A DNA stretch of 64,000 nt from Candidatus Sumerlaeota bacterium (GTDB taxonomy: Bacteria > Sumerlaeota > Sumerlaeia > Sumerlaeales > Sumerlaeaceae), in assembly GCA_026398535.1 (NCBI GenBank), contig JAPLSQ010000031.1, forward strand, positions 4,165 through 68,164, given 5' to 3'. Shown one piece after another: positions 1,643 through 21,078 of the stretch. Numbering within the stretch: position 1 is the stretch's first letter; the number at the start of each line of letters is the position of its first letter. The notes under the pieces were generated by a model. That model was given only the letters and a program-made list of their open reading frames with translations. It had not been told where the DNA came from and ran no database searches. Position numbers and translations under genes: made by a program.

Positions 1643-2602
1643 TTATAAAAGGTGACAGGCGGCAAAGTGGCCGTTGCCCAGCTCGCGCAAGGTGGGGTGC
1701 TCGCGACAGCATACGTCCATGACATGCGCGCATCGTGTGGAGAAAGGGCATCCCGGCGGGGGATTGGCGGGGCTCGGCATGTCCCCCTTTAACGATACAT
1801 TACCTGTTTTTCGCTCGGCGCTCATGGAGGGAACACTGGCGAGAAGGGCGCGGGTGTAAGGATGAGCGGTTCGCTCAAAGATGGCCTCGCCGCCGCCGAT
1901 CTCCATCATTCTGCCCAGGTACATGACCGCCACCATGTCGCTGATCCGCTCGACGACCGCCAAGTTGTGTGAGATGAACAGGTATGTGAGACCGAACTGA
2001 TGCTGAAGGTCCTGAAGGAGCTTCAACACCTGAGCCTGAATGGAGACATCAAGGGCGGACATAGGCTCGTCGCAAATCAAAAGATCGGGTTTCAGCGATA
2101 ACGCCCGCGCGATGCAGACCCGCTGAAGTTGTCCGCCGCTCAACTCCCCCGGATAGGCGTTGAACGCGTCCGGCGGCACGCCGACCGTGGCCAGCAATTC
2201 CCGGACTTTATTCTCCCACTCGCTCTTCTTTCCAATCCGGTGAATGCGGTAAGGTTCGGTGACAGCCCAGCCAATCGAGCGTTGCGGATTGAGCGCTGAG
2301 TACGGGTCCTGGGGAATGAGTTGCATTCTGCGGCGCAATGACCGCATACCGCGCGCTCCCAATCCGGTGATGTCCATGCCCTCGAAGAAAATGCGGCCGC
2401 TGGTCGGCTCGGCAAGGCGAAGGATCATTCGGCCGACGGTTGTTTTGCCGCTCCCGCTTTCACCGACGAGCCCAAGGGTTGCGCCCCTTCGCATCCCGAA
2501 GGATATGCCGTCCACGGCCCGGACGATTGTGCCTCTGAAATGGAAATATTTCCGCAATGCCTCAACCCTGAGCAAATCACCATTGGCGGGTGTGCTGTTC
2601 AT
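1643..2602 (-). CDS. ABC transporter ATP-binding protein, OppF/DppF-like
   Basis: Walker A GESGSGKTT; signature LSGGQLQRVCIARAL; Walker B LLICDEP; C-terminal oligopeptide-type extension (CPFSTRC). Overlaps the upstream ATPase by 4 bp (ATGA). Confidence 0.9.
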   Translation of the reverse strand: MNSTPANGDLLRVEALRKYFHFRGTIVRAVDGISFGMRRGATLGLVGESGSGKTTVGRMILRLAEPTSGRIFFEGMDITGLGARGMRSLRRRMQLIPQDPYSALNPQRSIGWAVTEPYRIHRIGKKSEWENKVRELLATVGVPPDAFNAYPGELSGGQLQRVCIARALSLKPDLLICDEPMSALDVSIQAQVLKLLQDLQHQFGLTYLFISHNLAVVERISDMVAVMYLGRMMEIGGGEAIFERTAHPYTRALLASVPSMSAERKTGNVSLKGDMPSPANPPPGCPFSTRCAHVMDVCCREHPTLRELGNGHFAACHLL

Positions 2603-3621
2603 GGCGTCGCGGGCATCCCCTTATGCAACCAGCAGGCGCTGGCGTGATCAGCGGTGCACTGAAATATGGGCGGCGTTTCCCGCGCGCAGATTTCCATCAG
2701 GCTGGAACAGCGCGGATGAAAGGCGCAGCCTGAGGGCAATTGAAGCGGATCGGGCGGGGAGCCGGGGATCGGGTCGAGCGGTTCCATTCGGCGCCCCAAC
2801 CGCGGGGAGGATTGTAACAATTTTCGCGAGTACGGATGAGCAGGCTCGCGCATGAAAACGCTGACCGGCGCGCTTTCCACGATTCGTCCCGCATACATCA
2901 CGATGATGCGTTCGCATACCTCGGCGACCACGCCAAGATCGTGCGATACAAGAAAAACGGCCGTCCCCCTCTCCCTGCGCAGACGGGCGATCAGACGCAG
3001 CACCTGCATCTGCACGGTGACATCCAACGCTGTCGTGGGCTCATCGGCGATCAGCAATTTGGGGTTGCAGGCCAGCGCCATGGCGATCATCACCCGCTGG
3101 CGCATGCCGCCGCTGAATTGGAATGGATATTCCCAAAACCTTTTCCCGGGATCTGGAATTCCAACCAGCTCCAGCAATTCAAGGGCGCGTGTGTCGGCGG
3201 CGCGCGCCGTCATCAGGCCATGCCAGCGTAGTGGTTCAGCCACCTGCTCGCCAATCCTAATCGTCGGATTCAGCGAACTCATCGGGTCCTGAAAGATCAT
3301 GCCGATTTCACGCCCGCGGATGCCGCGCAGCGCTGTTTGGTCCATCGCGGCAAGGTTCCGCCCCTCAAGAAGCGCCTCACCTGTCACGGTGCATCCCTGC
3401 GCAGGCAAGAGTCCCATGACCGCGAGCGCGCTGACGCTCTTGCCGCTGCCGCTCTCGCCGACAAGACCCAGGCTCCCGCCCTTGCGCAGACTGTAGGAGA
3501 TGCCATCAACCGCCTTCAGAATCCGCCGCCGCGGTTCGCGCATTTGAAAATGAACCGCCAGATTCCGCACTTCCAGCAGATGCCCTTTGCCGACGGACTG
3601 TTGTGTAAAGGTCATGCTCAA
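2599..3621 (-). CDS. ABC transporter ATP-binding protein, OppD/DppD-like
   Basis: GESGSGKSV Walker A; FSGGMRQRVMIAMAL signature; LLIADEPTTALD Walker B. Confidence 0.9.
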   Translation of the reverse strand: MSMTFTQQSVGKGHLLEVRNLAVHFQMREPRRRILKAVDGISYSLRKGGSLGLVGESGSGKSVSALAVMGLLPAQGCTVTGEALLEGRNLAAMDQTALRGIRGREIGMIFQDPMSSLNPTIRIGEQVAEPLRWHGLMTARAADTRALELLELVGIPDPGKRFWEYPFQFSGGMRQRVMIAMALACNPKLLIADEPTTALDVTVQMQVLRLIARLRRERGTAVFLVSHDLGVVAEVCERIIVMYAGRIVESAPVSVFMREPAHPYSRKLLQSSPRLGRRMEPLDPIPGSPPDPLQLPSGCAFHPRCSSLMEICARETPPIFQCTADHASACWLHKGMPATP

Positions 3622-4466
3622 TCCCCCTTCCTGTTCATGCTCAGCGCGTCCTGAAGTCCGTCGCCGAGGAAGGTGAAAGCCATGAGCGTGATGGTAAAAA
3701 GGACGGAGGGAAAGACAAGGAGGTGAGGATACGAGCGCATCGCGGCGGCGCCATCAGCAATGATAGTGCCGAAGGAGGGAATCGGCGGTTGCACGCCCAT
3801 ACCGAGTATGCTCAATCCCGACTCGACCATCATCCCGCCGGGGATCGAAAATGTGATGGTGACGATCAACGGCCCCAGCGTGTTCGGCAGGATATATTTT
3901 GTGATGATATGGAAACCGCTGGCTCCAAGCGACCGCGCCAGCTCGACATATTCCAGCCCTTTGACCGAGATCACCTGCCCGCGCATCAGCCGAGCCATCC
4001 CCACCCACGAGGTGGCGCCAACCGCCAGGAACATCGTCGGAAAACCGCGTCCAAGGCCCGATACAAGGATGATGCTGAACAGAAAGGAAGGAAAGGCGAA
4101 CACGACATCGGTGAAACGCATGATGATGAAATCCGTTCTGCCGCCGGCATAACCCGCCCAGGCTCCGAGAAATCCGCCAATCAGCAGACTCAGGAATGTG
4201 CCTCCCAGCGAAATGATGAGCGCGTTGCGAAGACTGTAGATCAGACGGCTGAAAAGGTCGCGCCCCAAATCGTCGGTTCCCATCCAGTACTTGAGACTCG
4301 GCGGCTGGTAGGAAGATTCAGGCCCCAGATGAGCCTCATTGTATGCGTAAGGCGTGATATAAGGCGCCAGCGCCGACACCGCAACCAATGCCGCCACGAA
4401 AACCCCGCAGACAAGCGCCAGACGGTTGCGGCTGAGACGCGTCAACACCTGCCGCCAGTAGCCCAT
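3618..4466 (-). CDS. ABC transporter permease, OppC/DppC-like
   Basis: Multi-TM protein with the ABC permease EAA-like region (ARSLGASGFHIITKYILPN); sits between an OppB-like gene and the ATPases. Confidence 0.85.
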   Translation of the reverse strand: MGYWRQVLTRLSRNRLALVCGVFVAALVAVSALAPYITPYAYNEAHLGPESSYQPPSLKYWMGTDDLGRDLFSRLIYSLRNALIISLGGTFLSLLIGGFLGAWAGYAGGRTDFIIMRFTDVVFAFPSFLFSIILVSGLGRGFPTMFLAVGATSWVGMARLMRGQVISVKGLEYVELARSLGASGFHIITKYILPNTLGPLIVTITFSIPGGMMVESGLSILGMGVQPPIPSFGTIIADGAAAMRSYPHLLVFPSVLFTITLMAFTFLGDGLQDALSMNRKGD

Positions 4467-4468
4467 GA

Positions 4469-5482
4469 TCAGCCCCCCTCATTCCGCAGACGCGGATCAA
4501 TGATCCGGTATGAAATGTCCACGAGAAGGTTCATGATGCTGATTGTTGCGGCCAGAAACATTAGCGAGGCGATCATTAAGGGGTAATCGCGATCCGTGGC
4601 GGCCGTGGCGAAATAACGGCCCAGCCCCGGTACACGGTAGATCGTCTCGATCCAAACCGTGCCGACAAGCATCGTCCCCACCTGCGGGCCCATCACGGTG
4701 ATCAATGGGATAAGGGAGTTGCGAAGGGCGTGATTGCCGATGACCGCCATCGGCGATCCCCCCTTGGCCCAGGCCGTTCGAATATAGCTCTCGTTCATGG
4801 TGGTGATCATGCTTGTGCGCATGTAACGCACGATGATCGCGATAGGCGCTATCGCCAGAGCCAGCACCGGCATGATAAAATTCCGTCCATGCCCCCAGCC
4901 GCTGGTGGGCAGCCATCCCAAATACACTGAAAGCAGAAGCTGCAATCCAAGGGCGATCACGTAAGGCGGAATACATTGACCCCCCATTGCCAGCGTTACG
5001 CATGTCCGATCCATCCATGTGTTTCGTCGAAGCGCCGCCAAAATGCCCAGCGGCGCTCCTATCAAAAATGCCACCGCCACGGAGAGCAGAGCCAGTGAGA
5101 AGGACACGGGAAATCCCTCCCGAATCATCGTTTCGATCGTCCGGTTCGGATACCTGAATGATGGGCCAAAGTTGAACGTGACGGTGTCTTTGATGAAACG
5201 GACGTATTGCACGTTCACCGGTTTGTTGCTTCCAAAGCGGTCTTCCCATTGCCCCATGATCTGCTGCTGGGTGACCTGATCGCCGGCGATGAATCCCTGA
5301 AGCCGTGTGACATCAAGAAAATTGCCCGGAGCCGCGTGAATCAGCCAGAAGGTGATGTAGCAGACAACCATCAGCACAAGGACCACGCCAATCAGCCGTC
5401 GGATGATATAACCGGTCATCGTGTTGCCGAAAGACTGAATCATTCGCCCTATCGCCCGGGCGTATTGGCGTATGCCCATCAT
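4469..5482 (-). CDS. ABC transporter permease, OppB/DppB-like
   Basis: IIRRLIGVVLVLMVV N-terminal TM and AWAKGGSPMAVIGNHALRN permease motif. The start at 5482 overlaps the binding-protein stop (ATGA); an alternative start is 5419 (MTGYIIRRL). Confidence 0.8.
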   Translation of the reverse strand: MMGIRQYARAIGRMIQSFGNTMTGYIIRRLIGVVLVLMVVCYITFWLIHAAPGNFLDVTRLQGFIAGDQVTQQQIMGQWEDRFGSNKPVNVQYVRFIKDTVTFNFGPSFRYPNRTIETMIREGFPVSFSLALLSVAVAFLIGAPLGILAALRRNTWMDRTCVTLAMGGQCIPPYVIALGLQLLLSVYLGWLPTSGWGHGRNFIMPVLALAIAPIAIIVRYMRTSMITTMNESYIRTAWAKGGSPMAVIGNHALRNSLIPLITVMGPQVGTMLVGTVWIETIYRVPGLGRYFATAATDRDYPLMIASLMFLAATISIMNLLVDISYRIIDPRLRNEGG

Positions 5483-7326
5483 CCATCGTCCTTCTTGCCG
5501 TTTTCGATGTTGATCCAGCGGTAGTACATGATCGTGGAGTTCAGATAGGGATTAAGAACAACACCATGGACTTTGGGCTGGATGAGCCACCAGCCCATCT
5601 GATAGGTGTATTGAATTGTCCATGCTTCCTCGTCAATTTTGAGCATGGCCTCGTTCAGCATATCATTCTGGCGCGATGCGTCCTTCTCAGTCGCGATCTC
5701 TTTGGCTCTGTCCAACAGCCAGCGGCATGTGGGACCGACTTTTTCCGTCCGGTAAAGATCGATTTTCGCGCCCAACTCCTCCAGGCGTTTGCGTTTCTCC
5801 TCCTGCTTGCTTTCCTCGAGCATGCTGATGACATCAGAATTCTCCGTGCAGGTTTGCCAGAACTCCATCCGCTCCTTCGGGGGCATGTCCCAGAAGGGCA
5901 GATAGACGCTTGTGAACTGGCGGATAGCCTCCAATTGGCTGTCCCAAATGTAAAACACGGCCCCGTATGTGTATCCGAGATAGCCCGGCGGCTGAATCGC
6001 CGCGTTTCTGGCCGACCATACGCCCGGTTCCATGTTTTCAAGGTTCACTTTAATGCCCAGGTTATGCTCCCATTCCTCCTTCAGGCCGGCCAGGATGGTG
6101 ATCAGCGGCGGCCCCTGGGTGGGAACCATGATGTTGACGACGGGACACTTCCCGCCGGTGGCGGCTTCAGCTTCCGCGAGGAGCCGGCGCGCCTCCACTG
6201 CATTGAATGCAAGACCGCGTTCCTTGACGTGTGACAGGACAGGCGGGACGAAATCGGTCAGCGGGACATAGATTCCCTTGGCAACGGTGTTGACGATTTT
6301 GGGGAGGTCGGCGCCCATCGTCAGCGCGCGCCGGAACCGCGCGTCCGACATAATCGGGTGTTGCGTCTTGACAGGCATAAGGAAGTGCACCGTGCTTGTG
6401 GGCGAGGTGACAAGCGCGCCACTGAGCCTGGTGTTGCGGAAACAGTATCGGATGTCCGGAATTGCTCCGGCTGGTGTAATGTCCACCTCGTTGTTTTCAA
6501 AAGCGGTCACGCCGCCGGCCGCATTGAGCAAGAGAATGATGCGGTCAAGGTTGCCACGTTCACCGCTCCAGCAGGGATTGGGCTTCAGACTCATCGAACT
6601 GTTGAAAAGCCACTTCTCGACGATATAGGGGCCGTTGCAGACAAAGTTGCCGGGTTGCGTCCAATCCTTCCCCTGCTTCTCGCAGGACTCGACGACTTTT
6701 TTCGGAACGGGAAGGCAGACGGGGTGCAACAGGGAATCAGGGAAATCCGGCGTTGGCGATTTCAGCGTGACGCGCAATGTCCAGGAATCAGGCGCTTCAA
6801 TGCCTATCTGTTCGGGCGGAATGTTGCGGCCCATGCCGAATTCCTGGAAGTTGCGGATGAAACGCAGACCGGAATTATACCACCATGTGCCGCCGGCTAT
6901 CCTCGGATTGCCGACCCGTATCCACGCATACCGGAAGTCTTCCGCCGTGACAAGATCGCCATTCGACCACCGGCGGTCTTTGCGCAGATGGAATGTGTAA
7001 GTGAGCAAGTCCTCTGAAACATCCCATCGCTCCGCTGCCGCGGGCGCAACCCGGAGGTCGCGCGTGAACTCGACCAGTCCCTCGAATAACGCCTGCTGGG
7101 TGATGAACGTGCCGGTGAAATAGCGCGGGTCTATCGTTGTGACTGTATTGCCGTCAACCCGCAGGACTTTCTCGCCGGGTTTGACCACGTCGAACTCGGC
7201 CCCCTTCTGGCGTGTCGCCGCATAGACGGACCAGACCAGAATAAAGAGCGTGACGAGGCCAATCCCGTAGAAAGCCAGAAGATCCGATTTGAAGAACCGT
7301 CTGACCATGTAGGCAAGGTCACCCAT
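5479..7326 (-). CDS. ABC transporter substrate-binding protein, family 5 (Opp/Dpp-type; probable oligosaccharide- or oligopeptide-binding)
   Basis: 615 aa with an N-terminal membrane anchor/signal (LLAFYGIGLVTLFILVWSVYAA). Size and composition are typical of family-5 binding proteins; it is the first gene of the permease/ATPase set. Confidence 0.8.
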   Translation of the reverse strand: MGDLAYMVRRFFKSDLLAFYGIGLVTLFILVWSVYAATRQKGAEFDVVKPGEKVLRVDGNTVTTIDPRYFTGTFITQQALFEGLVEFTRDLRVAPAAAERWDVSEDLLTYTFHLRKDRRWSNGDLVTAEDFRYAWIRVGNPRIAGGTWWYNSGLRFIRNFQEFGMGRNIPPEQIGIEAPDSWTLRVTLKSPTPDFPDSLLHPVCLPVPKKVVESCEKQGKDWTQPGNFVCNGPYIVEKWLFNSSMSLKPNPCWSGERGNLDRIILLLNAAGGVTAFENNEVDITPAGAIPDIRYCFRNTRLSGALVTSPTSTVHFLMPVKTQHPIMSDARFRRALTMGADLPKIVNTVAKGIYVPLTDFVPPVLSHVKERGLAFNAVEARRLLAEAEAATGGKCPVVNIMVPTQGPPLITILAGLKEEWEHNLGIKVNLENMEPGVWSARNAAIQPPGYLGYTYGAVFYIWDSQLEAIRQFTSVYLPFWDMPPKERMEFWQTCTENSDVISMLEESKQEEKRKRLEELGAKIDLYRTEKVGPTCRWLLDRAKEIATEKDASRQNDMLNEAMLKIDEEAWTIQYTYQMGWWLIQPKVHGVVLNPYLNSTIMYYRWINIENGKKDDG

Positions 7327-7474
7327 CAGGCGTCCACCATGTTGCGCACACGGTCAGTCTCATGAATGGGCCAGCCCCATTCCAGCGCGCCAACCATGCG
7401 GATCGCTTCTATAAGGCCTGCCCTGTTCGCGCGTGTTAACTTCATATCGTTCAGCCTCAGACTGTCCCGCGGGG

Positions 7475-8461
7475 TCAGTCGTTTTTCGCCTCTTCAATCA
7501 TTGCCGCCAGGTTCTCCACGGGAACATCGGGCAGGATCGCCTCGTGGCTGGGCGAGACAACGTAGCCTGGCCCCAGGTGTTTCTTGTTGTGTCTTACGGC
7601 TTCGCGAACCTCCCGTGGCGTTCCTTTGCGCAGCAGATAATGCACGTCAACTCCGCCGACAAAAAGCAGCTTCCCGCGAAACTCACGGCCAAGCTCCTCC
7701 ACGTTCATGCCCGCGGCCGAAACCTGAACCGGATGCAGCGCCTCGATTCCCATGTCGATCAGATCAGGAATCAGTTTGCGAACCGAACCGCAGGTGTGCA
7801 GCCACACATGGATCCCGTAGGAGTGCGCCTGCTCGATCAGGCGCATCATGCCCGGCTTGATGAATTTCAGGAAAAGCTCGCGGCTGAAAAGGATGCCGTT
7901 TTGCGTGCCCAGATCGTTCCCAAAGAAAAAGAAATCAATGAGGCCGCCGGCTTCCTTGAAAACCTTATCATTGACGGCATAGTGGAAATCCACAAGGCGC
8001 TCGGTAACCGCTTCCACCAGCGCCGGCTCATCGAGCATCTTGATCAGGTAATCCTCGCCGCCCAGAAGGTTCCAGCAATCATGAAAAAAAGGCGACCAAC
8101 TCCCCCCATAGACCGCGGAATCTTTCGCCGCGAGACAGCTTTGCCGTGTCGCGCCAACATCCGCGTGTTTCGGATCAGGCCACGAAAAAGTTTCCACTTC
8201 ATGCATTGTCTCGAGTTTCACCAGGCCGGTTCTTTCAAAATCAAAAACCCATCTTTCATTGGGCGCGCGCCAGTGATAACTGTCAGCATAACGGAAATCA
8301 TCGCCCACCACGCGAAGAAGACTTTCGCGGTCAGCGGCTCCGTAATAGTCTTGAAGATTTGCAAGAACTTCCGGTTGGGGATGCCCCAGCCACAAAGGCG
8401 TCCGGTCCGGCTGCTTGTGCGCCAGAGCTGTCAATACTCGCTGCTTGGAGTTCATCAACAT
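7475..8461 (-). CDS. Uroporphyrinogen decarboxylase (URO-D) family protein (MtaA/CmuA-like methyltransferase fold); function unknown
   Basis: 328 aa with URO-D-like features (…TPLWLGHPQPE…, HTCGSVRKLIPDLIDMGIEALHPVQ). Cytoplasmic. Confidence 0.7.
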   Translation of the reverse strand: MLMNSKQRVLTALAHKQPDRTPLWLGHPQPEVLANLQDYYGAADRESLLRVVGDDFRYADSYHWRAPNERWVFDFERTGLVKLETMHEVETFSWPDPKHADVGATRQSCLAAKDSAVYGGSWSPFFHDCWNLLGGEDYLIKMLDEPALVEAVTERLVDFHYAVNDKVFKEAGGLIDFFFFGNDLGTQNGILFSRELFLKFIKPGMMRLIEQAHSYGIHVWLHTCGSVRKLIPDLIDMGIEALHPVQVSAAGMNVEELGREFRGKLLFVGGVDVHYLLRKGTPREVREAVRHNKKHLGPGYVVSPSHEAILPDVPVENLAAMIEEAKND

Positions 8462-8541
8462 CTTTCTTCATCTGAGTGCTATTATGATGTATATGTGTTT
8501 ATCGGACCCGCCTGATATTAAGCCGAATTGCCAGAATCCCA

Positions 8542-11217
8542 TCAATGCGCCGTCTCCTGAATAATGTTCTCCGCTTTACGGACTGCAACCTTATAATCCC
8601 GCTGGATGAAGGCTTGCATGGCGGATTGATAATCGTTTTGGAGTCCGCCTGTTTTGAGACTCTTTCCCTTGTCGCGCGCCCATTCCTGCAACCGGGCATA
8701 GGCATACGCCAGCCGGTAGCGCGCGGTCCGCGCCGCTTTGATCCGCGCCAGCGTTGCGCCGTCATCTTGACGCCGAAGTTCCGCCCGCGCATAGTCCAGT
8801 GAGTCCAATTCCATCGGAATTCCTGCAGTCAGTTGACTGGCCGTGTATGCCTTCGTCACCCCTTGGCGATTCGGGGCGCCCATGATGGTCAGCGTGTAGT
8901 TGCCCGATTCCAATCCCTTCAACCGCAGGGAAAAGGCGCGTCGACCCTCCGTCGGATTGAAGACGATCAGAGGGCGGTCAGCGCCGGTGATCGCCTCTTC
9001 GCAATGATCCAGCGTGCTGGTGTTCAGTGCCATGATCGAGCGGTCGCTGGCCGCCGCGAGCGCCTCATACATCCACCAGTTCCAGATCGAGTTGCCCGCC
9101 ATGTAGAGCGCCGTCCCCTCCTTGCCCGTCGAACCGCCCATCGACTCCAACTGGTACAAAGGTTCCACCGGGAAATATTGCCCCACATCGCGGCGCAAAT
9201 CCGGATTCAGGGCGCGAACTGCCGGGCCATAAGTGGCTGGATAAAAGTGAAACGAGTTGATCCGGTTCAGGTTGGAGAGTTTGAGCAGGAGCGGATTCAA
9301 CGGATTTGACACATCGCGGTCCAACAGCCATGCGATGCACAGGTGCGCCTCGGTGGTTTCCCATGGAGTCGCGCACGCGGCCCCGACATAGGCATAGAAA
9401 AGACCGGCGTGGCCCAACTCGCGGTTGACCGCATCCGTCCTGTCCTCGTGCCAGAAAGTCATGCGAAGCAGGGTGTTAAGGAAGTCGCGCGAGACGCGCA
9501 ACCATTGCGGATTGCCTTCCAGCTCGTAAAGGTTATATGCGGCAACGGCGCCATAAGCGTTGCCTGTCAGATCCGAGGGCGGCATATCCATCGGATCGCT
9601 GTAACTGCGCGTATAATACTTGTTCGATTCGCTGTAGCGCATCTTGTGCAGAAACGTGTCCAGAGAGACCCGCGCTTCATCCAGAAATTGGCGGTTGCCG
9701 CTCATCCCATAGGATCGGGCCATGACGAAGCTGTAGGAGCCGACAGTCCATGGCTCGCGGACAGCGCCCAATCCTGGGTTTTCATAATAAGGAAGAGGCT
9801 GGCGGCTGAGCGGATTAAAATAGGTGGAAAAGACATAGCCAACATTGCGGGCATACCCGATCAATCCTTCGTTGGCCATCAGCATGCGACCAGCAACGGC
9901 CGGGTTAAAATCCTCGTCCGCCAGAGTCTCGTTGATCTGGAGCATCTCCTGGTAGAAGACAAGGGACTGCCATGAGATTTCCATGGGATTGACGGGGGGA
10001 GACTGCGGGAGAAAACTGCGGATCATCCGTGAGGGGGGATCGTAGAAACGCGGCACGGCATCCTTCTTAATCCGGGCAAACTCCAGCGTGCCGGTTGTCG
10101 GGTGAAGACGTGCATAGAGCATCCAAGGCGCGAGATGGTGATTGACCGTGGAGAAATTCCACGCCGAGGGCAGAACCGCGGGATCGCTCTTCATCAGGTC
10201 GGGATGAGCAATCATCTCGTCCCGGTGCTTCACCAGTTCCAGCGGTTCGTCCTTCCATGGCTTTTTCACAACAGCGCAAGTCACATTCTTGAGCATGAGG
10301 TCATGAATCGTTCTCCCCGCAAATCGCTCCCAAGTGACTTCGCCGCCTTCCAGTGTGTCCTTGGGGAATTCCGCGTTGGCGGGGTGAAGGGGCGCGCACA
10401 CCCGGATCATCTTGTCCAATGCCTCGAATTTCGCTGGTTTGCCTTCGCGGCGCGCGCTGTACAGGTAATATTCGATGATCATCGGACCGGATGTGATCTT
10501 GTTGCCCGACAGCTTTCGGGGGTGCATCCCCAGCCCGGTCTGGCCATTCCGCGTCTGTGATTTGATCTGGATGTTTATGAAGCGATGCACGCCCCAGGGT
10601 GAAAACCAAGTCATCGGCGTCATGTTGAAAAAAACAACCGCCTCCCGGTTGTTGTCCCACAGGTAGGCGGCGGGGAACCCGAAGCAGAATGCCACATTGT
10701 ACGCGTCGCCCGTTTGGCTGACCGGCCCCTGGTCCACGGTCAGGGTGGCCGTTGTCTGATTCATCCACAGGGCCACGGTAGGTTGCGGATTATCGATCTT
10801 CAGGTCAGACGGAAGGCGGCATGTGATCGCGAACTTGATCAAGGGGCTGCCGGCCTCGAGCTCAACCCGCGCATCCCAAGGGTAATCGGGATTCTGGCGG
10901 GTTCCTTTGAGCAGGATGGCTTTCCGGGAAGGGCTGTTCTCCACGATTTCGCATGAGCTTGGCTGAAGGTTGAAACAGGAGCCCTCGACGATGGGACGGC
11001 GCGCGTCGAACAGGGCGTCCCAGCGGGAGCCATTGCGGACGTATGTCGTGATTTCCCACACACCGTTCGGATTCCTGTCGAAGGCGACACGCTGGATTTC
11101 ATTGGAGATTTCAACATGGCCGTCCCTGCTTTGCATGGCAGGCGCGCCATGAACCTGGGGCGGCAACAGAAAAAGCGCGGCACACAAGACCGCTACAGGT
11201 GATGGGAGTCGCCTCAT
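8542..11217 (-). CDS. Large secreted protein of unknown function, paralog family member P1 (~890 aa); candidate glycan-active enzyme
   Basis: Start taken at MRRLPSPVAVLCAALFLLPPQVHGAPA (signal peptide), inside the longer track ORF 8542..11316. Clear paralog of 11352..14219 and 48327..51048: shared blocks PQPTVALWMNQ, GFPAAYLW, SAWNFSTVN, ISWQSLVFYQ, DFNPAVAGRMLM, VGSY..M.R.YEM, GNAYGAVAA, LRVSRDFLNTLLRMT.W.ED.TDAV, LDSLDYAR.ELR. Confidence 0.8.
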   Translation of the reverse strand: MRRLPSPVAVLCAALFLLPPQVHGAPAMQSRDGHVEISNEIQRVAFDRNPNGVWEITTYVRNGSRWDALFDARRPIVEGSCFNLQPSSCEIVENSPSRKAILLKGTRQNPDYPWDARVELEAGSPLIKFAITCRLPSDLKIDNPQPTVALWMNQTTATLTVDQGPVSQTGDAYNVAFCFGFPAAYLWDNNREAVVFFNMTPMTWFSPWGVHRFINIQIKSQTRNGQTGLGMHPRKLSGNKITSGPMIIEYYLYSARREGKPAKFEALDKMIRVCAPLHPANAEFPKDTLEGGEVTWERFAGRTIHDLMLKNVTCAVVKKPWKDEPLELVKHRDEMIAHPDLMKSDPAVLPSAWNFSTVNHHLAPWMLYARLHPTTGTLEFARIKKDAVPRFYDPPSRMIRSFLPQSPPVNPMEISWQSLVFYQEMLQINETLADEDFNPAVAGRMLMANEGLIGYARNVGYVFSTYFNPLSRQPLPYYENPGLGAVREPWTVGSYSFVMARSYGMSGNRQFLDEARVSLDTFLHKMRYSESNKYYTRSYSDPMDMPPSDLTGNAYGAVAAYNLYELEGNPQWLRVSRDFLNTLLRMTFWHEDRTDAVNRELGHAGLFYAYVGAACATPWETTEAHLCIAWLLDRDVSNPLNPLLLKLSNLNRINSFHFYPATYGPAVRALNPDLRRDVGQYFPVEPLYQLESMGGSTGKEGTALYMAGNSIWNWWMYEALAAASDRSIMALNTSTLDHCEEAITGADRPLIVFNPTEGRRAFSLRLKGLESGNYTLTIMGAPNRQGVTKAYTASQLTAGIPMELDSLDYARAELRRQDDGATLARIKAARTARYRLAYAYARLQEWARDKGKSLKTGGLQNDYQSAMQAFIQRDYKVAVRKAENIIQETAH

Positions 11218-11351
11218 GTTTGAGATGGGAAGCTTCTTCAATAACGATGGCCGGAAAGAGCGGATGCGGCAGACAGGACGGATGACACATCCAAGAGGAC
11301 GAAGGATTGGTTTCAAGGGCGTGCCTTCTTTGCCATGTCCCGTGCCATTCG

Positions 11352-14219
11352 TCAGTCGTATAACTCCCAGCCGTTGATCCGGGACGGGAATTCATACCCG
11401 AGCTGAACAAGAATATAGACCGCGCTATCATTGGCCGCGGAGTAGTTGCCGTTGTCGTAGGCTTGCATGGCCGACTGGAAAACGGTCTTAAGATTCGCGA
11501 GAGGGTCCGTTCCCTGGTCGCGCGCCCGTTCCTGGAGCAGGCTGTATGCCAGGGAAAGGTTGTTTCTGGTGTTGCGTATCTCGCCAATCTGCGCGAGCAT
11601 GGCATTCGCGTTTTCATGGCGCAGTTCCACGCGCGCATAATCCAGCGAATCGAGCGCAAGCGCCACGCCGCTCGTGAGCTGGGCGGATGAATAGACCACC
11701 GGCGCGCCCGAATTGCCCGCCGAATCGGCGCATATCATGGTGTAATTTCCTTCAGCAAGGCCCAGAATCCTGAAGTTGAAGCTGAGCCGCCCGGTTGTCG
11801 GATTGAATACGATAAACCGGCGCTTCGCCGAGGATAATGTCTCCTGGTAATCATCCAGAACATCGAGGTTCAGCGCCATGATGGATCGGTTGTCGGCCTG
11901 CGCAAGCGCTTCATACATCCAGTAATTCCACATCGCGTTGCCGGCCATGTAGAAAGCTGTGCCGTTGCTTCCCGTCGAGCCGCCCGGAAACTCCAGCATG
12001 TAAAACTCCTCGATCGGGCAGTACTGGCCGAGGTCGCGGCGAAGGGAAGGATTCAGCGCACGCACGGTGGGCGTGTAGGCGGCCGGATAGAAATAGAACG
12101 AGTTGATCCGGTTCAGATTCGACAGCTTCAGAAGCAGCGGAGTCAGAGGATTGGCGGTGTCGTTTTTCAGCATCCAGGCCATGCATAAGTTGGCTTCCGA
12201 AGTTTCCCATGGCGTTGGACAGGCCGCGCCGCCGAAGGGATAGAAAAGCCCGGTGTTGCGCAACTCACGGCTCACGGCGTCCGTGTTGTCTTCAAACCAG
12301 ATCGTCATCCGCAACAGAGTGTTGAGAAAATCGCGGGACACCCTCAGCATGCGCGGATCGCCGGATCGCTGGTAGAGTTTGAATGCCGCCACGGCGCCAT
12401 ATCCGTTGCCTATCAGTTCCATGACGGGCATGTCCATCGGCTCGGTAAAAGTCCTTGTAAAATAGGAATTGGATTCGGTGTAGGTCATCGTGGTCAGAAA
12501 TGTGTCGAGCGCCTTGGCCGCCTCCGCGCGCAACCGTTCATTGCGGGTCATTTCATAGGCTCGCATGAGGACATAGGCATAGGAACCGACTGACCATGGT
12601 TCGCGGATGGCGCCCAGACCCGGATTTTCCGCAAAGTCCATCGGCTGTTTGCTGCCGGGATAAAAATATGTCGAGAAGACATAATTGACGTTTGCGGCAT
12701 ATTGCATCAAACCGGACAAACCCATCAGCATGCGTCCGGTGATGGCGGGATTGAAGTCAGCGGGCGCCAGCGCCTCGTAAACCTCCAGCAATTTCTGGTA
12801 AAACACAAGGCTTTGCCAGCTAATCTCCGCCGTGAAAACATGAACCGGCTGGCGGGTGCCGCTGCACACCATCCTGGCCACGGAATCATAGAAGCGGGGA
12901 AGACCCTGCTTTTTTACCATTGCGAATACATGCGCGCTCGTGTTGGGATTCAGGCGCTCATACAGCATCCATGGTGTCAGGTGCAGGTTGACTGTGGAGA
13001 AGTTCCATGCGCTCTCGGCCTGAGACTGGCTGGCCACCGCCCTGTCCGGATGGACAATCATGCGATTGCCGATCGTGATCAGGTAAAGCGGCATATCATC
13101 CCATGCAACGCTCAGGTCGCCATAAGTAGTGTTCCTGATCTGGAAATCGGACACGGCCTGCTGGGTGAATGATTTCCATGAGACTTCGCCCCCCGCCAGT
13201 GTGTTGGACGGAAACACCGAGTCGGCCCGACAAAGAGGCGCGAACACCTGCATCATCCGGTCCAGAGCCTCGAACTTTGTGGGTTTGGCGTCGCGGCGGC
13301 TCGCATATAAATAAAAGGTGACAAGCATCTCGCCGGCGCGAAGCTTGTTTCCGGAAAGATGCCGCGGGAACATGCCCAAGCCTGTCTGCCCCGCCTGCGG
13401 CTGGATTTTGATCTGCACGTCCTGGAAGCGGCCGACGCCCTGCCGCGACATCCAGGTCATCGGAGTCATGTCAAAAAACACCGAAGCCTCCCTGCCCTGA
13501 TGCCACAGATAGGCGGCTGGAAAACCATAGACAAACGGGGTGTTGTAGACATCCCCCGTCGGACTCAGCGGACCCTGGTCCAGAGTCAGATCGGCGGAGG
13601 GCTGATTCATCCACAAGGCGACGGTGGGTTGTGGCGCGGTCAGCGTAATATCCGACTGAAAATGCGAGGCGATCTGAAAAAAGGCGAGCGGGGAATCGGC
13701 GCGCATTTCCATGCCGATGTCCCATACGTTGGGCGGTGAAGCGCTGACGCCATGAAACTGGACAAGTTTGCGGATTGAGCTGTTCTCAAGGATGCCATAT
13801 GATGTCGGTTCAAGATTGAAAATGGCGCCCTCGATCAGGGGACGGCGCCCGTCGAGGAACAGTTCCCACGAGCTGCCGTTCCACACATGGACGCTCGGGC
13901 GAAACTTGCCGTCGGTGTCCTTGGCAAATGATATTTTCTGAATGCCGTTGGACATTTCCAGCAGACTGTCCGTGGCCACAAGCGCCAGGCTGCCGGTTGA
14001 AGGTGCGCTTGTCACAACCATCAGTTCCTCTCTCCCAGTGGTATTGCCCGCGCCATCGCCGGCAGTATTGACAACCCTCTCCGCCGCGTTCCTGGCAGCC
14101 CGCGGCGTGTCATCACCTGCGGGCGTCGCTTTCGGCTCGCCAGTGGCCTTCGCGCTGAGCAATGCCAGCAAACATATTTGGGCCAGCGCGCGAAGAAGAC
14201 ACTTTTTCTTTATCGGCAT
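11352..14219 (-). CDS. Large secreted protein of unknown function, paralog family member P2 (955 aa); tandem duplicate of P1
   Basis: Signal peptide MPIKKKCLLRALAQICLLALLSAKATG; collinear similarity to P1 along its whole length; separated from P1 by 134 bp. Confidence 0.8.
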   Translation of the reverse strand: MPIKKKCLLRALAQICLLALLSAKATGEPKATPAGDDTPRAARNAAERVVNTAGDGAGNTTGREELMVVTSAPSTGSLALVATDSLLEMSNGIQKISFAKDTDGKFRPSVHVWNGSSWELFLDGRRPLIEGAIFNLEPTSYGILENSSIRKLVQFHGVSASPPNVWDIGMEMRADSPLAFFQIASHFQSDITLTAPQPTVALWMNQPSADLTLDQGPLSPTGDVYNTPFVYGFPAAYLWHQGREASVFFDMTPMTWMSRQGVGRFQDVQIKIQPQAGQTGLGMFPRHLSGNKLRAGEMLVTFYLYASRRDAKPTKFEALDRMMQVFAPLCRADSVFPSNTLAGGEVSWKSFTQQAVSDFQIRNTTYGDLSVAWDDMPLYLITIGNRMIVHPDRAVASQSQAESAWNFSTVNLHLTPWMLYERLNPNTSAHVFAMVKKQGLPRFYDSVARMVCSGTRQPVHVFTAEISWQSLVFYQKLLEVYEALAPADFNPAITGRMLMGLSGLMQYAANVNYVFSTYFYPGSKQPMDFAENPGLGAIREPWSVGSYAYVLMRAYEMTRNERLRAEAAKALDTFLTTMTYTESNSYFTRTFTEPMDMPVMELIGNGYGAVAAFKLYQRSGDPRMLRVSRDFLNTLLRMTIWFEDNTDAVSRELRNTGLFYPFGGAACPTPWETSEANLCMAWMLKNDTANPLTPLLLKLSNLNRINSFYFYPAAYTPTVRALNPSLRRDLGQYCPIEEFYMLEFPGGSTGSNGTAFYMAGNAMWNYWMYEALAQADNRSIMALNLDVLDDYQETLSSAKRRFIVFNPTTGRLSFNFRILGLAEGNYTMICADSAGNSGAPVVYSSAQLTSGVALALDSLDYARVELRHENANAMLAQIGEIRNTRNNLSLAYSLLQERARDQGTDPLANLKTVFQSAMQAYDNGNYSAANDSAVYILVQLGYEFPSRINGWELYD

Positions 14220-14234
14220 CTGTTGCTTTCCGCC

Positions 14235-15734
14235 TTAATTTGCATAACTCAATCGTCTTTGGTTCTCGATATATGACGGGACATCGTTCCAGGCAACCGC
14301 GTTCTGAGGGGCATAGTGTTTGACGCTCGACGACATGCGGATGGCTTGGCGCGCGTCGGCCAGCGAACTCATCATGCCAAACGCGCGCGCCTGAACCGCA
14401 AAATTGCCGAGGATTGCGGCTTCGACTGGTCCCGCAAAAACAGGCACACCGCAGGCGTCCGCCGTAAACTGGCACAGCAACTGGTTTTGCGCACCGCCGC
14501 CGAAAATGTGGATGCTGGACGTTGTTCGTCCCAGCGCCTTGTCCATTTCACGCAATGTCCGGCTGTACTTGGCGGCCATGCTCTCCAACGAGCACCTTGC
14601 CAGCGCGCCTTGGGTTTCCGGAACAGTCAGCCCTGTTTCCCGGCAGATTTCCTGAATCGTCTGGATCATGTTAGCCGGCGCGTACAACCGGGGATCATCC
14701 ACGCTGATAAGCGACGCCAATGCCTCGGCTTCGGCCGCTTGTTTTATCAGCTCATCGTAATGAATATCCATTCCGTCCTTTTTCCAAATCCGTCGGCATT
14801 CCTGAAGCAGCCAAAGCCCAATAAAAGTCTTATGGAAACAAATCCTGCCATTCGCGCCGCCTTCGTTGGAAAATCCGAGAGCGAAACTGTTCTCGTCAAT
14901 CAGCGGCTTGTCGAGCTCGGTTCCCATGATGGACCAAGTGCCGCAGGAAATGTAGGCCCACGGTTCAGACTCGTTTTCCACCGGCGCGGAAGCGATGGCC
15001 GAGGCCGTGTCATGGGTTGCCGGAGTAATGACCAGCGTCCCGGCGTCCAGACCAGTTTGTTCCGCAATCTCAGGGAGAATGGGGCCAAGCACTGTGCCGC
15101 AGGGCGTAATATCCCTGAAAATGCGCCGGGGAAATCCCATGCGGTATATAATCTCCTCCTGCCATGTTCCCGTCAGTGGATCGAGAAGCTGTGTTGTCGT
15201 TGCGTTTGTATGCTCACAGGACATGCGGCCAGTCAGCAGGCAGTTGAACAGATCGCCCATTAGAAGAAGGGAACCGGCGCAATCGAGCAGGGGCGACTTT
15301 GAGTGCGCGAGGGCGAGAAGCTGGTAAAGCGTGTTGAAACGATTGAAACCAATTCCCGTCAGCCTGTAGATTTCCTTTTCGGGAAGAATGCCAAAGGCGA
15401 TCTCAGGCATGCCCTCTGTGCGCCGGTCCCTGTAGTGCGCCGGATTGGCCAGAAGTGTTCCATCGCTGGCAAGAAGCCCGAAATCCACCCCCCATGTGTC
15501 AATGCCAATCCCCGCCGCGTGGGGGCCGTGCCGTTTCACAAATTTCGCGATGCCGGTCAGCATCTCCTCATAAATGCAGGCGGCATCCCACTGGTGAACG
15601 CCTTGCATGGTGAGATGTCTGGTTGGGAAACGGTGGATTTCTTCAAACTCAAATCGGTTGGCCGACAGCAATCCGGCAATAGCCCGGCCGTTGCTGGCGC
15701 CAAGGTCAAAAGCCAGGAATCGATGGCTTGTCAT
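14235..15734 (-). CDS. rhaB: Rhamnulokinase (FGGY-family kinase)
   Basis: Start at MTSHRFLAFDLGASNGR (15734), inside the longer track ORF 14235..15962. Motifs GIDTWGVDFGLL, NATTTQL, ATHDTASA, SCGTWSIMG, NEGGANGR, GLWLLQ, IFGGGAQNQLLCQFTADACGVPVFAGPVEAAILGN match RhaB. Confidence 0.85.
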   Translation of the reverse strand: MTSHRFLAFDLGASNGRAIAGLLSANRFEFEEIHRFPTRHLTMQGVHQWDAACIYEEMLTGIAKFVKRHGPHAAGIGIDTWGVDFGLLASDGTLLANPAHYRDRRTEGMPEIAFGILPEKEIYRLTGIGFNRFNTLYQLLALAHSKSPLLDCAGSLLLMGDLFNCLLTGRMSCEHTNATTTQLLDPLTGTWQEEIIYRMGFPRRIFRDITPCGTVLGPILPEIAEQTGLDAGTLVITPATHDTASAIASAPVENESEPWAYISCGTWSIMGTELDKPLIDENSFALGFSNEGGANGRICFHKTFIGLWLLQECRRIWKKDGMDIHYDELIKQAAEAEALASLISVDDPRLYAPANMIQTIQEICRETGLTVPETQGALARCSLESMAAKYSRTLREMDKALGRTTSSIHIFGGGAQNQLLCQFTADACGVPVFAGPVEAAILGNFAVQARAFGMMSSLADARQAIRMSSSVKHYAPQNAVAWNDVPSYIENQRRLSYAN

Positions 15735-15988
15735 GAATCGTCTGCCTCCTGCATCATCGGAATTCAGCCATTCTCTTTGATAACACTGAAGTTCATGATC
15801 GGTTTCTTGAGTGCTGAAAAAACCATATAATTTCATGAATGCGTATATACTATATATACAATTGGCCGCGTCAAGGAAAGAATGCATAAAAATGAATTCG
15901 GGGGAATCGGATTTGGCGATTTCACAAAACAATTTGAAAAAACGATCGAATGTTATTGACAATCGTGCGATGGAGCCTGTCGTATTGT

Positions 15989-16010
15989 AATGTCATGAGA
16001 TAATGACAAT
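15989..16010. promoter_or_regulatory. Inverted repeat aaTGTCAT-gagata-ATGACAat in the divergent rhaB / regulator promoter region; candidate operator
   Basis: Perfect 6-bp arms (15991-15996 and 16003-16008) with a 6-nt spacer, in the AT-rich 350-bp intergenic region between divergent genes. TGACAAT also occurs at 15956-15962. Confidence 0.35.
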
Positions 16011-16085
16011 CAGCCAGGCATGAGCTTGATGGCGATGTTAAACCTCTCGCAATCATGATCTTATGATACGATTCTCTGGACAAAG

Positions 16086-17261
16086 ATGGCAATACAGTAT
16101 ATAGATCAGAAGGCTAATGACAATATGAACAATTCAACAGACAGCATGGTCAAAGAACAGTTCGACACCATTGTTCTGGATCCCGCATCCAGCGAACCGC
16201 TTTATGTTCAGTTGGAGAAGGCGATCATGGACAGAATCCAAGTGTGCCAGTGGATGCCCGGTTTTCGCCTTCCAACGTATCGCAAACTCGCCGAGATGAC
16301 GGGCGTCAGCCTGATCACCGTTCAGCAGGCGGTGAACAACCTGGTGAATCGGAATCTGCTTTACCGGCGGCAGGGCCAGGGCACGTTCGTCGCCACACAG
16401 GAGACGAAGTCCGCCTCAAACCGCATCGCTCTTTTTCTGCCCAACCTGCGCGAACCGTTTTTCTCTGTCCTGGCGCAGATCATCCAAACAGAGATGATCA
16501 ACGATGGATACGCCGTCTCCATTTTTGCCATGGACGATGGCGTTTCCCAGATCGCGCGGGCTGTCGAGCTTATGCGCGATCATGATGTTGATGGCATCAT
16601 CACCACCACCGCAAGCAACGAGGAGACGTTTTCCCAAGTTCTGCGGGCGCGCTCATGGAACATACCGGTCATCATTGTTGACGGGCACATTCCGGGCGAA
16701 GAGATCAGTTACGTCGAGTGCGACAACCACGAGGGAATGACCCTGATCATAGACCATCTTGTCAGCCATGGACACCGGCGCATCGGTTTTGCCTCAGGCC
16801 CATGCTATACTTATGGACTTAAAGCGCGCATGGAGGCTTTCAGTGAGATCATGAGCAAGCGGGGAATCGGCTTCAATCCGTCCTGCCTCCAGATCAGCCA
16901 CCTTGACCGCGACGAAGGCGGCTGGGATGCGGCGCACAAATTGCTGCTTCTTCGCGATCCGCCGACGGCCATCGCCTGCTCCACCGACATGGTCGCGGCG
17001 GGAGTTCTTCGCGCCGCCAGAGCTCTGGGCATAAAGGTGCCCGACCAGCTTTCTGTTGTGGGATTCGATGACCTCTACCTGGCCGCTCATCTTGAGGTTC
17101 CTCTGACCACCATCAGACAACCCGTGGAAAAAATCGGGAAAATCGCCAAAAAAATGATCCTCGAAAGGATCCGCAAAACCTCCAAGTCCGTCATGGAATT
17201 TCACACTCTCCCGCCAAAACTGGTCATGCGCTCGAGTACAGGCCCCGTGTGTGAACCATGA
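16086..17261 (+). CDS. AraR-like chimeric transcriptional regulator (GntR-type winged HTH + LacI/GalR-type periplasmic-binding-protein-like sugar-binding domain)
   Basis: N-terminus LPTYRKLAEMTGVSLITVQQAVNNLVNRNLLYRRQGQGTFVA is a GntR-family HTH. The remainder is PBP1/LacI-like (ALFLPNLREPFF, IITTTASNEE, VPDQLSVVGFDD). Divergent from the rhaB operon. Confidence 0.8.
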   Translation: MAIQYIDQKANDNMNNSTDSMVKEQFDTIVLDPASSEPLYVQLEKAIMDRIQVCQWMPGFRLPTYRKLAEMTGVSLITVQQAVNNLVNRNLLYRRQGQGTFVATQETKSASNRIALFLPNLREPFFSVLAQIIQTEMINDGYAVSIFAMDDGVSQIARAVELMRDHDVDGIITTTASNEETFSQVLRARSWNIPVIIVDGHIPGEEISYVECDNHEGMTLIIDHLVSHGHRRIGFASGPCYTYGLKARMEAFSEIMSKRGIGFNPSCLQISHLDRDEGGWDAAHKLLLLRDPPTAIACSTDMVAAGVLRAARALGIKVPDQLSVVGFDDLYLAAHLEVPLTTIRQPVEKIGKIAKKMILERIRKTSKSVMEFHTLPPKLVMRSSTGPVCEP

Positions 17262-17449
17262 AATATTCATGGTTCATCCAAAGACCATTGCCACCCGCAT
17301 AAAACAATTGTATATGCTCAATATAAAATTTTTGCTTTTATGTCGATTTTCCTTTGACATCCATTTCCGTTTCATTGCTTCTTGCCTTGATCATACAAAA
17401 ATTCATCATTGTATATGATGACAATACATGGAAAGGATGGTATGAAAAG

Positions 17450-19048: not shown

Positions 19049-19209
19049 TATCGCCCCCGGCATATAAAGCTTGAGGACATGGATCAATAGCCTCATGTGG
19101 CGGCAAAGGTTGCTTGTTCAGACGTCAGCCCATCGGCCTCGCGCGCGAATGAGCAGCCTGCCCCGCATGAGGAATCTGTATGGAATATATGGCAAAAGGA
19201 GAAGATGCC

Positions 19210-19803: not shown

Positions 19804-19886
19804 TCGGAAATCATTCACTTTCCAGCCTGTGAAATTGTTGTCAAGCGCCAGCGCCTTGTTATGGACGCATTACACAAATCGTACAC

Positions 19887-21017: not shown

Positions 21018-21078
21018 ACGATAATATGGGCCCGGCTCAATCTCACGAACAAAACATCCATCATGAAGGAGAAGGTTA

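Follow-up and report, generated by a model that had tools for sequence, protein, structure and literature searches.

A PepT-family transporter with an OppA-lineage binding protein adjoins a rare family of secreted proteins in Candidatus Sumerlaeota and is a candidate importer of carbohydrate oligomers

We analyzed a 64,000-nucleotide (nt) window from a Candidatus Sumerlaeota bacterium (contig JAPLSQ010000031.1 of assembly GCA_026398535.1, positions 4,165 to 68,164, forward strand), in which nine genes run head to tail on the minus strand from position 15734 to position 1643. In order, they encode a rhamnulokinase-like kinase, two related proteins of an unnamed secreted family (P2 and P1), a protein with the uroporphyrinogen decarboxylase (URO-D) fold, a family-5 solute-binding protein, and the OppB, OppC, OppD, and OppF components of an ATP-binding cassette (ABC) transporter. 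A first-pass annotation had described this block as a peptide-type importer hard-wired into a rhamnose/glycan operon and had proposed that it takes up oligosaccharides rather than peptides; its coordinates, gene order, and protein families agree with ours. The transporter is a member of the PepT (Opp-Dpp-Nik) family (TC 3.A.1.5), because a family-5 binder, OppB/OppC permeases, and two oligo_HPY ATPases are all present (each ATPase matches PF00005 as well as PF08352, with PF08352 scores of 67 and 65 bits). Judging from sequence and gene neighborhood, we think it rather probable that it imports carbohydrate-containing oligomers produced by the neighboring enzymes. The family assignment with Pfam and NCBIfam models covered the window open reading frames (ORFs) of at least 200 amino acids (aa), except for overlapping frames taken to be spurious.

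The strongest argument for a carbohydrate ligand comes from the transporters that adjoin genes of the P1/P2 family (the P family) in other genomes. In locus L001, a P-family gene and a URO-D gene are followed by an MFS_2 symporter of the glycoside-pentoside-hexuronide (GPH) type. In L032, two P-family-related genes lie on either side of a P gene, and after them come a CUT1 ABC system, an SDR gene, and a DUF6259 gene, an arrangement that mirrors the 40- to 58-kb part of our own window. There, a third paralog, P3, is codirectional with two CUT1 sugar ABC systems (region 40858-58200), and its neighbors encode SBP_bac_1 proteins, permeases, an SDR protein, a LamG-GH2 protein, a 709-aa protein of unknown function, and a DUF6259 protein. 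Finally, L011 has a P gene, an SBP_bac_5 gene, oppBCDF, and then a P3-like gene. The transporter beside P-family genes is thus interchangeable between genomes, and because two sugar-transporter families and two independent Opp-type systems share the same slot, the Opp-type system in the window probably carries carbohydrate as well. The L011 system was considered as an ortholog of the one in the window and rejected, as the two binding proteins share only an N-terminal signature; because they are not orthologous, the two Opp associations are independent rather than inherited. In L011, the binding protein and OppB occupy a single 1141-aa frame (12531-15956) with no stop codon between them, which reflects either a fusion or an unrecognized internal start.

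In most annotated loci, P-family genes also adjoin recognized carbohydrate-active enzymes (CAZymes), among them glycoside hydrolases (GH) of several families: GH43, two GH172 genes, and GH2 in L002; GH9 and GH95 in L005; GH2 and a GH67-like gene in L006; GH29 in L010; and GH95, a sulfatase, a GH120-like gene, and a chondroitinase-B-like gene in L016. The locus with the closest P homolog, L031, resembles a compact version of the 16- to 34-kb part of the window. It contains, in order, an ortholog of the window's divergent regulator (469 bits) directly before the P gene, an ortholog of its large GH2 gene (1835 bits) directly after it, an ortholog of a gene for a 1198-aa protein (1293 bits) directly after the GH2 gene, and then an iron-containing alcohol dehydrogenase (Fe-ADH) gene and a partial match to a LarA-like isomerase. 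The compact L031 cluster contains no transporter.

By sequence and predicted structure, the binding protein is a descendant of the OppA/MppA lineage. Its best matches among PDB sequences were OppA of Escherichia coli and Salmonella (E = 2e-47, over residues 53-433 only), followed by MppA and DppE, and no Thermotoga sugar binder was among the 60 best PDB sequence matches listed. A predicted model (predicted local distance difference test [pLDDT] score, 82.7) gave a Foldseek ranking that agreed with the sequence comparison. Beyond confirming the OppA-lineage ancestry, the model and its Foldseek search did not discriminate. With respect to specificity, the score against the OppA equivalog model NF011684 was 164 bits, compared to a cutoff of 947, and scores against all other equivalog models for binders of peptides, nickel, glutathione, or opines were likewise far below their cutoffs. 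Homology to E. coli OppA does not extend beyond residue 433; the segment with the ligand-anchoring aspartate follows directly. In Gram-negative OppA proteins, this residue (Asp419 of Salmonella enterica OppA) binds the N-terminal amine of the peptide (PMC5736914). The surrounding motif, W-x-[AGS]-D-Y, was present in 17/17 OppA-like sequences of a 25-sequence alignment (A2), and W-x-x-D-Y was kept in 103 of the 120 best homologs of the binding protein, whereas the binding protein itself has Y-L-G-Y-T and has lost flanking conserved positions, including the neighboring W/R. Because both the equivalog score and the aspartate argue against it, we did not classify the protein as an OppA equivalog.

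The loss is shared by a small group of proteins. The seven nearest full-length relatives (580 to 610 aa) have Phe or Ser at the aspartate position, and these relatives and the binding protein have in common a C-terminal helical insertion of ~40 alignment columns. At 615 aa, the binding protein is ~70 aa longer than its homologs (median, 544 aa). Its N terminus reads as a membrane anchor or Sec signal with no lipobox, and in a search of 5.8 billion clusters its homologs were at most 37% identical, with the exception of one 76%-identical fragment. For two of the relatives lacking the aspartate, we read the surrounding genes, which in each case make up a glycan or amino-sugar locus. In L007 (Nitriliruptor), the neighbors include a GntR/Peripla_BP hybrid regulator like that in the window and DegT, NagA-like, NagB-like, and SIS genes; in L008, they include a heparinase II/III-like lyase and DegT, MR_MLE, and GFO_IDH genes. 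If the binding protein is indeed specific for sugar, this would be an independent recruitment within the OppA/MppA lineage.

The layout of the block bears on whether the transporter belongs functionally with the glycan-side genes. Intergenic distances from the kinase gene to oppF were 15, 134, 80, 148, -4, 2, -4, and -4 nt. Stop/start overlaps were confined to the transporter cassette: the ATGA overlaps reported earlier at 5479-5482 and 2599-2602 are present (the plus strand reads TCAT at both), and we found a third overlap, TTGA, at 3618-3621 between the OppC and OppD genes. (An alternative ATG start for OppD lies two codons downstream of the TTG.) These overlaps couple the five transporter genes to one another, but the link to the glycan-side genes is a 148-nt gap, so that “hard-wired” overstated the arrangement. 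On its coding strand, the gap (7327-7474) had no terminator-like or sigma-70-like site; it folded no better than shuffled sequence (z = 0.30), and it had no Rfam match. A search of the gaps of the block for terminators, structured RNAs, and riboswitches likewise found none. The junction sequence thus gave no sign of a separate promoter or terminator splitting the block, and the nine genes may be cotranscribed. The first gene has the sequence AGGAGG 7 nt upstream of its ATG (15734); the next gene after oppF is a convergent acetate kinase gene (223-1530). The same proteins are present in two independent metagenome-assembled genomes (MAGs), one of which, labeled Candidatus Sumerlaeota, contains MCX7018187 (binding protein), MCX7018189 (P1), MCX7018190 (P2), and MCX7018191 (kinase).

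Several observations weigh against a carbohydrate ligand. Whether ranked by sequence or by fold, the solved proteins closest to the binding protein are peptide binders without exception, and its top 50 Foldseek matches (template modeling [TM] scores of 0.61 to 0.86, target normalized) included no Thermotoga-, Vibrio-, or Sphingomonas-type sugar binder. Lactococcus OppA binds peptides by other means, without the anchoring aspartate (PMC5736914), and for this reason we regard the loss of that residue as suggestive rather than decisive evidence for a nonpeptide ligand. Among the roughly 30 P-family loci read, an Opp-type neighbor was found in the window and in L011 only. An M20 peptidase gene lies in L007, and genes for peptidases S15 and S51 lie in the P-family locus L003. 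The gap that separates the transporter from the glycan-side genes is the widest of the block. No rhaA or rhaD gene (isomerase/aldolase family) was found among the annotated window ORFs of at least 200 aa. Lastly, P1 gave whole-chain Foldseek TM scores of only 0.2 to 0.4, which are weak (the best was 0.38, target normalized, for 5no8), and P1 and P2 are putative glycan-cleaving enzymes as judged only from predicted architecture and neighborhood.

Some of these observations would fit a mixed ligand derived from a complex glycoconjugate, such as a glycopeptide, an oligomer containing amino sugars or uronates, or a sugar-amino-acid conjugate, in place of a neutral rhamno-oligosaccharide. The OppA/MppA descent of the binding protein is in keeping with such a ligand, as are the DegT aminotransferases, NagA- and NagB-like enzymes, M20 peptidase, and heparinase-like lyase in the loci of its relatives, the S15 and S51 peptidases in the one P-family locus, and the sulfatases in P-family loci L003 and L016. 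The block itself, however, has no peptidase, amidase, sulfatase, or amino-sugar gene, and its catabolic gene encodes a ketose kinase of the rhamnulokinase type; we therefore consider a glycoconjugate ligand unlikely, if the most serious of the alternatives. It is quite improbable that the cassette lies downstream of carbohydrate genes by chance and works as an ordinary importer of oligopeptides or murein peptides, with its own start within the 148-nt gap and a role in nitrogen or amino acid supply. The matches to OppA, MppA, and DppE, the deposited name of the binding protein (“peptide ABC transporter substrate-binding protein”), and the position of the widest gap directly before its gene would all agree with such a role. 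Nevertheless, the aspartate that anchors the alpha-amino group has been replaced together with the neighboring W/R, the score is about one-sixth of the OppA equivalog cutoff, no peptidase is encoded in the block, and the gap shows neither a promoter-like nor a terminator-like site; in addition, the relatives in L007 and L008 sit in glycan/amino-sugar loci, and sugar transporters occupy the equivalent position elsewhere. The least probable alternative is an importer of monosaccharide (L-rhamnose or a related deoxyhexose) released by exo-acting P1 and P2, which would suit the kinase at the head of the block and the lack of a cytoplasmic glycosidase within it but would not explain the large GH2 gene without a signal peptide in the divergent operon, syntenic with P-family genes in L031, or the MFS_2-type transporter in the corresponding slot of L001, and would run counter to the tendency of family-5 binding proteins with an extra domain to bind oligomers. 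The GH2 protein in particular suggests that oligomers, and not only monomers, reach the cytoplasm. Thus, the part of the earlier proposal that favored oligosaccharides over peptides is upheld as the rather probable reading, with more behind it than the gene context from which it started, on the basis of the aspartate loss, the loci of the relatives, and the sugar transporters beside P genes elsewhere, with peptide-containing ligands as the less probable options just described.

Table 1. Positions of the genes and intergenic regions discussed, numbered from the first nucleotide of the window
Feature	Position	Strand	Characteristics
Rhamnulokinase-like FGGY kinase, 499 aa, first gene of block	14235-15734	-	FGGY_N + FGGY_C
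P2, 955 aa, secreted, putative glycan-cleaving enzyme	11352-14219	-	No family match; signal-peptide-like N terminus MPIKKKCLLRALAQICLLALLSAKA
P1, paralog of P2, 891 aa from ATG 11217	8542-11217 (ORF 8542-11316)	-	AlphaFold2 model, Foldseek
URO-D-fold protein, 328 aa, no signal peptide	7475-8461	-	PF01208, 78 bits, model positions 139-344 only
148-nt junction, glycan-side genes/transporter	7327-7474		Largest gap; no terminator- or promoter-like site; no Rfam match
Family-5 solute-binding protein, 615 aa	5479-7326	-	SBP_bac_5 (PF00496), 203 bits (cutoff, 32.4)
OppB-type permease	4469-5482	-	BPD_transp_1_N + BPD_transp_1; start overlaps binding-protein stop as ATGA
OppC-type permease	3618-4466	-	OppC_N + BPD_transp_1; 2-nt gap to OppB
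OppD-type ATPase	2599-3621	-	ABC_tran + oligo_HPY; TTG start overlaps OppC stop
OppF-type ATPase, last gene of block	1643-2602	-	ABC_tran + oligo_HPY; ATGA overlap with OppD
Divergent control region, kinase/regulator	15735-16085		Sigma-70-like sites
GntR-helix-turn-helix/LacI-type sugar-binding hybrid regulator, divergent	16086-17261	+	GntR + Peripla_BP_1/3/4
Divergent companion genes	17354-24849	+	Beta-helix (secreted), N_methyl, second URO-D-fold, 1256-aa GH2 (no signal peptide)
Second URO-D-fold paralog	19887-21017	+	H-S-C-G only kept
Second GntR/LacI-type hybrid regulator	24886-26043	-	
P3, third P-family paralog, outside block	48327-51392	-	36% identical to P1 and P2

In our reading, a carbohydrate-containing oligomer would be produced outside the cytoplasmic membrane, and P1 and P2 are the candidates within the block. 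The two share 54% identity over 868 aa, and P3 aligns with both over about 860 to 930 aa (E values between 0 and 6e-180). Publicly, P1 and P2 are annotated as hypothetical proteins. Neither had a Pfam, NCBIfam, or PDB sequence match; P3 had no Pfam match, and ten distant family members also had none at the default threshold. The family is rare, with 45 homologous clusters among 5.8 billion. A profile search of 1.84 billion proteins returned 303 representatives (E ≤ 0.001), and these (about 300) are distributed among Sumerlaeota, Verrucomicrobiota, Planctomycetota, Armatimonadota, Hydrogenedentota, and Lentisphaerota. From the ATG at 11217, P1 begins with a canonical Sec signal peptide, MRRLPSPVAVLCAALFLLPPQVHG/AP, and its secretion depends on this start. 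The start is placed differently by different sources: the deposited product of 864 aa starts after the signal peptide, and the longest ORF starts at a TTG at 11316.

The AlphaFold2 model of P1 (pLDDT, 91.8; predicted TM score [pTM], 0.93) has two beta-sandwiches (27-256 and 721-816), separated by an all-helical center in which the helices are paired (346-717), and ends in a helical bundle. Its weak Foldseek matches in the PDB were dominated by CAZymes (GH94, GH101, GH36, GH95, GH76, and the polysaccharide lyase 5no8), and the TM score reached 0.47 to 0.52 at most, for targets consisting of the barrel only. The lyase 5no8 (BACCELL_00875) is the founding PL27 rhamnose-glucuronate lyase. When the P-family profile was compared with PDB sequences, it gave weak matches to GH76 and LanC proteins in the helical region (E values of about 0.005 to 0.26). 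Residues invariant in the widened family include two glutamates, E620 and E685 (numbered from Met34 of P1), both in the helical region. The overall domain order predicted for P1 resembles that of multidomain CAZymes such as GH94 cellobiose phosphorylase, GH95 fucosidase, GH76 mannanase, and lyase 5no8; it differs from these in that the matches are weak (profile E value of about 0.005 for GH76) and in that no Pfam or NCBIfam family is matched. These predicted features are compatible with a glycosidase. The earlier description of P1 and P2 as secreted putative glycanases was therefore too strong, as it has the glycosidase-like predicted architecture and the CAZyme neighbors in its favor but no known family was matched.

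The URO-D-fold protein of the block is unlikely to be a porphyrin decarboxylase. In an alignment with MtaA (4ay7), its H-T-C-G motif falls on HICG, and a His further downstream falls on the Cys of PGCG; the H-x-C-G motif and the downstream His are conserved in most homologs. The MtaA motif residues are zinc ligands of that enzyme, and because of this alignment the protein is probably a metal-dependent cytoplasmic enzyme rather than a porphyrin decarboxylase. It scored 53 bits against the MtaA/CmuA model TIGR01463 (cutoff, 235), and none of the window proteins scanned matched a corrinoid-protein family. In L001, the URO-D gene located after the P-family gene has a product 70% identical to the block protein, and URO-D-fold and P-family genes form a conserved pair. 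The two URO-D-fold paralogs of the window are only 21% identical to each other. A metagenome scan with the block protein returned one identical fragment; all other matches were at most 44% identical over segments of more than 50 residues, apart from a 31-residue match at 65%. Some distant homologs are encoded near CUT1 ABC or FGGY genes (L036 and L038). Full-text literature searches found nothing linking URO-D-like proteins to polysaccharide loci, and a search combining uroporphyrinogen decarboxylase, rhamnose, and ABC transporter returned irrelevant papers only.

The identity of the sugar is suggested mainly by the kinase and by the enzymes at homologous loci. Rhamnulokinase was by far the best model for the kinase, with fuculokinase next at 132 bits; the scores against the rhamnulokinase models TIGR02627 (437 bits; cutoff, 528) and NF007925 (394 bits; cutoff, 639) were nevertheless below the equivalog cutoffs. 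Homologs at 50 to 61% identity are named rhamnulokinase by their sources, and the kinase itself is named “rhamnulokinase family protein” or “rhamnulokinase [Candidatus Sumerlaeota bacterium].” At homologous loci we found fucosidases (GH29 and GH95), not rhamnosidases. The term “rhamnose operon” used in the first-pass annotation was thus overstated: it has the best-scoring model on its side, but the score is below the equivalog cutoff and the ORFs scanned include neither rhaA nor rhaD (a mutarotase, at ~100 aa, would fall under the 200-aa filter). Taken together, the recurrent fucosidases, the rhamnulokinase-like kinase, and a nearby lactaldehyde-type Fe-ADH and aldehyde dehydrogenase point to a glycan rich in 6-deoxyhexose and do not single out rhamnose. 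Separately, a P-family fragment (P0043, 56% identical to P2) and a kinase (P0316, 59% identical to that of the window) each come from an ENA contig of 10,729 bp. The two contigs may be one and the same, in which case the linkage of kinase and P genes would be conserved.

We propose that the block is one arm of a glycan-utilization island in this Candidatus Sumerlaeota genome. P1 and P2 would be secreted and, probably together with the beta-helix and 1198-aa proteins, would cut a 6-deoxyhexose (rhamnose/fucose) polysaccharide outside the cytoplasmic membrane. The binding protein, tethered by its N-terminal hydrophobic segment, would capture the resulting oligosaccharide and hand it to the OppB/OppC permeases, with OppD and OppF energizing import. 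In the cytoplasm, the GH2 protein that lacks a signal peptide would take the fragment apart, and the URO-D-fold metal enzyme would modify it. An isomerase encoded elsewhere could then act on the released deoxyhexose, and the rhamnulokinase-like kinase would phosphorylate the resulting deoxyketose and so feed it into glycolysis; lactaldehyde formed downstream might be handled by the nearby Fe-ADH and aldehyde dehydrogenase. We advance a broader version of this proposal as a speculation: P1 to P3 would be founders of an undescribed secreted glycan-cleaving family whose oligosaccharide products are imported by whichever transporter adjoins the genes in a given genome, the OppA-lineage binder would have switched independently from peptide to sugar through loss of the anchor for the peptide N terminus, and the conserved partner with the URO-D fold would represent a new metal enzyme of the cytoplasm that acts on the imported sugar, for example, an O-demethylase.

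If the transporter does carry carbohydrate, carbon-use predictions would be wrong at this locus in Sumerlaeota and related uncultured phyla and probably at the loci of the aspartate-less relatives too. It would also represent a second, independent route from the OppA lineage to nonpeptide specificity, and the lost aspartate together with the inserted helices would provide a simple, testable sequence marker for reannotating relatives. The rare family of ~900-aa secreted proteins and its URO-D-fold partner may be the more valuable by-product. They recur with fucosidases and sulfatases and are candidate new enzymes for deoxyhexose-rich polysaccharides.

The reuse of peptide-type ABC systems for sugars, on which the original proposal drew, is well founded, as PepT-family (3.A.1.5) systems are an accepted class of glycoside importers (PMC13543919), and the principle is therefore not new. 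As summarized in that review, such importers occur in Thermotoga maritima and hyperthermophilic archaea (Nanavati et al. 2006), and they resemble the system described here in having a family-5 binder, two permeases, and two oligo_HPY ATPases, in lying among glycan-degrading genes, and in being annotated as peptide transporters. The binder in the window is not close to those of Thermotoga and instead branches within the OppA/MppA lineage. Two Gram-negative family-5 proteins, the Vibrio chitooligosaccharide-binding protein (PMC8449061) and the Sphingomonas pectin binder SPH1118 (PMC9314435), are reported to deliver oligosaccharides to ABC importers; similarity of the window binder to them is local and weak (E of about 1e-6 over ~70 to 90 residues) and corresponds to the N-terminal signature. 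By sequence and model, the binding protein showed no close kinship to the characterized sugar-binding family-5 proteins of the Thermotoga, Vibrio, and Sphingomonas types, and we did not assign it to their clades. E. coli/Salmonella OppABCDF is the closest solved relative (target-normalized TM scores of about 0.74 to 0.78 for the binder) and shares the A-B-C-D-F order and the domain set, whereas the window binder lacks the Asp419 equivalent and the lipobox, is longer, and contains the ~40-column helical insertion. The classical rhamnose loci, E. coli rhaBAD with rhaT and Rhizobium rhaSTPQ, also place a rhamnulokinase-type FGGY kinase beside an uptake system. In the window, by comparison, the transporter belongs to another family, and the kinase scores below cutoff and heads an operon with secreted enzymes. 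What differs here is the OppA/MppA-like lineage of the binder, the loss-of-anchor signature in a small clade, the host phylum, and the undescribed family of partner enzymes. In the literature, we found no glycoside ABC transporter characterized in this candidate phylum, and one Sumerlaeota genomics paper made no mention of rhamnose, oligopeptide transport, or glycoside hydrolases.

The block is transcribed away from a hybrid regulator gene and its companions, and the same GntR/LacI fusion type adjoins both the binding-protein relative in L007 and the closest P homolog in L031. Sigma-70-like sites on the minus strand lie at 16123-16096, 16092-16063, and 15874-15847. Upstream of rhaB (the kinase gene), a repeat finder detected no inverted-repeat operator; a custom scan of this region found several imperfect palindromes. 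An exact 13-mer, ATCATGAACTTCA, is located 53 to 65 nt ahead of the kinase start codon (15787-15799). Its second occurrence (26387-26399) is upstream of the Fe-ADH gene, in the interval between that gene and the one for the second GntR/LacI regulator, and there it belongs to the imperfect palindrome CATGAAGTTCATG. The 13-mer may be a shared operator. We estimate its chance expectation at roughly 0.05, allowing for the region pairs compared, and regard it as a lead rather than a result.

Other genes of the window were noted in passing. The prepilin-type N-methylation-motif protein of the divergent operon (19180-19803, plus strand) has similar genes beside P-family genes in L006, L023, L025, L029, and L031. 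A LarA-like nickel-pincer-cofactor isomerase (27705-29042, plus strand; NCBIfam group 22, 442 bits; cutoff, 400) is flanked by the lactaldehyde-reductase-like Fe-ADH and the aldehyde dehydrogenase. The 1198-aa secreted protein (30625-34221, plus strand) had no Pfam match and is another uncharacterized component of the island. A tRNA-Leu(GAG) gene (34309-34394, minus strand) marks the boundary between the glycan island and housekeeping genes (enolase and PriA). Toward the end of the window, plus-strand genes at 58507-63137 encode an IolG-like dehydrogenase, a zinc-containing alcohol dehydrogenase (Zn-ADH; IolM-like), a xylulokinase-like FGGY kinase, and a 326-aa protein, and orthologs of all four (399 to 701 bits) lie directly upstream of the P/Opp-type cluster in L011.

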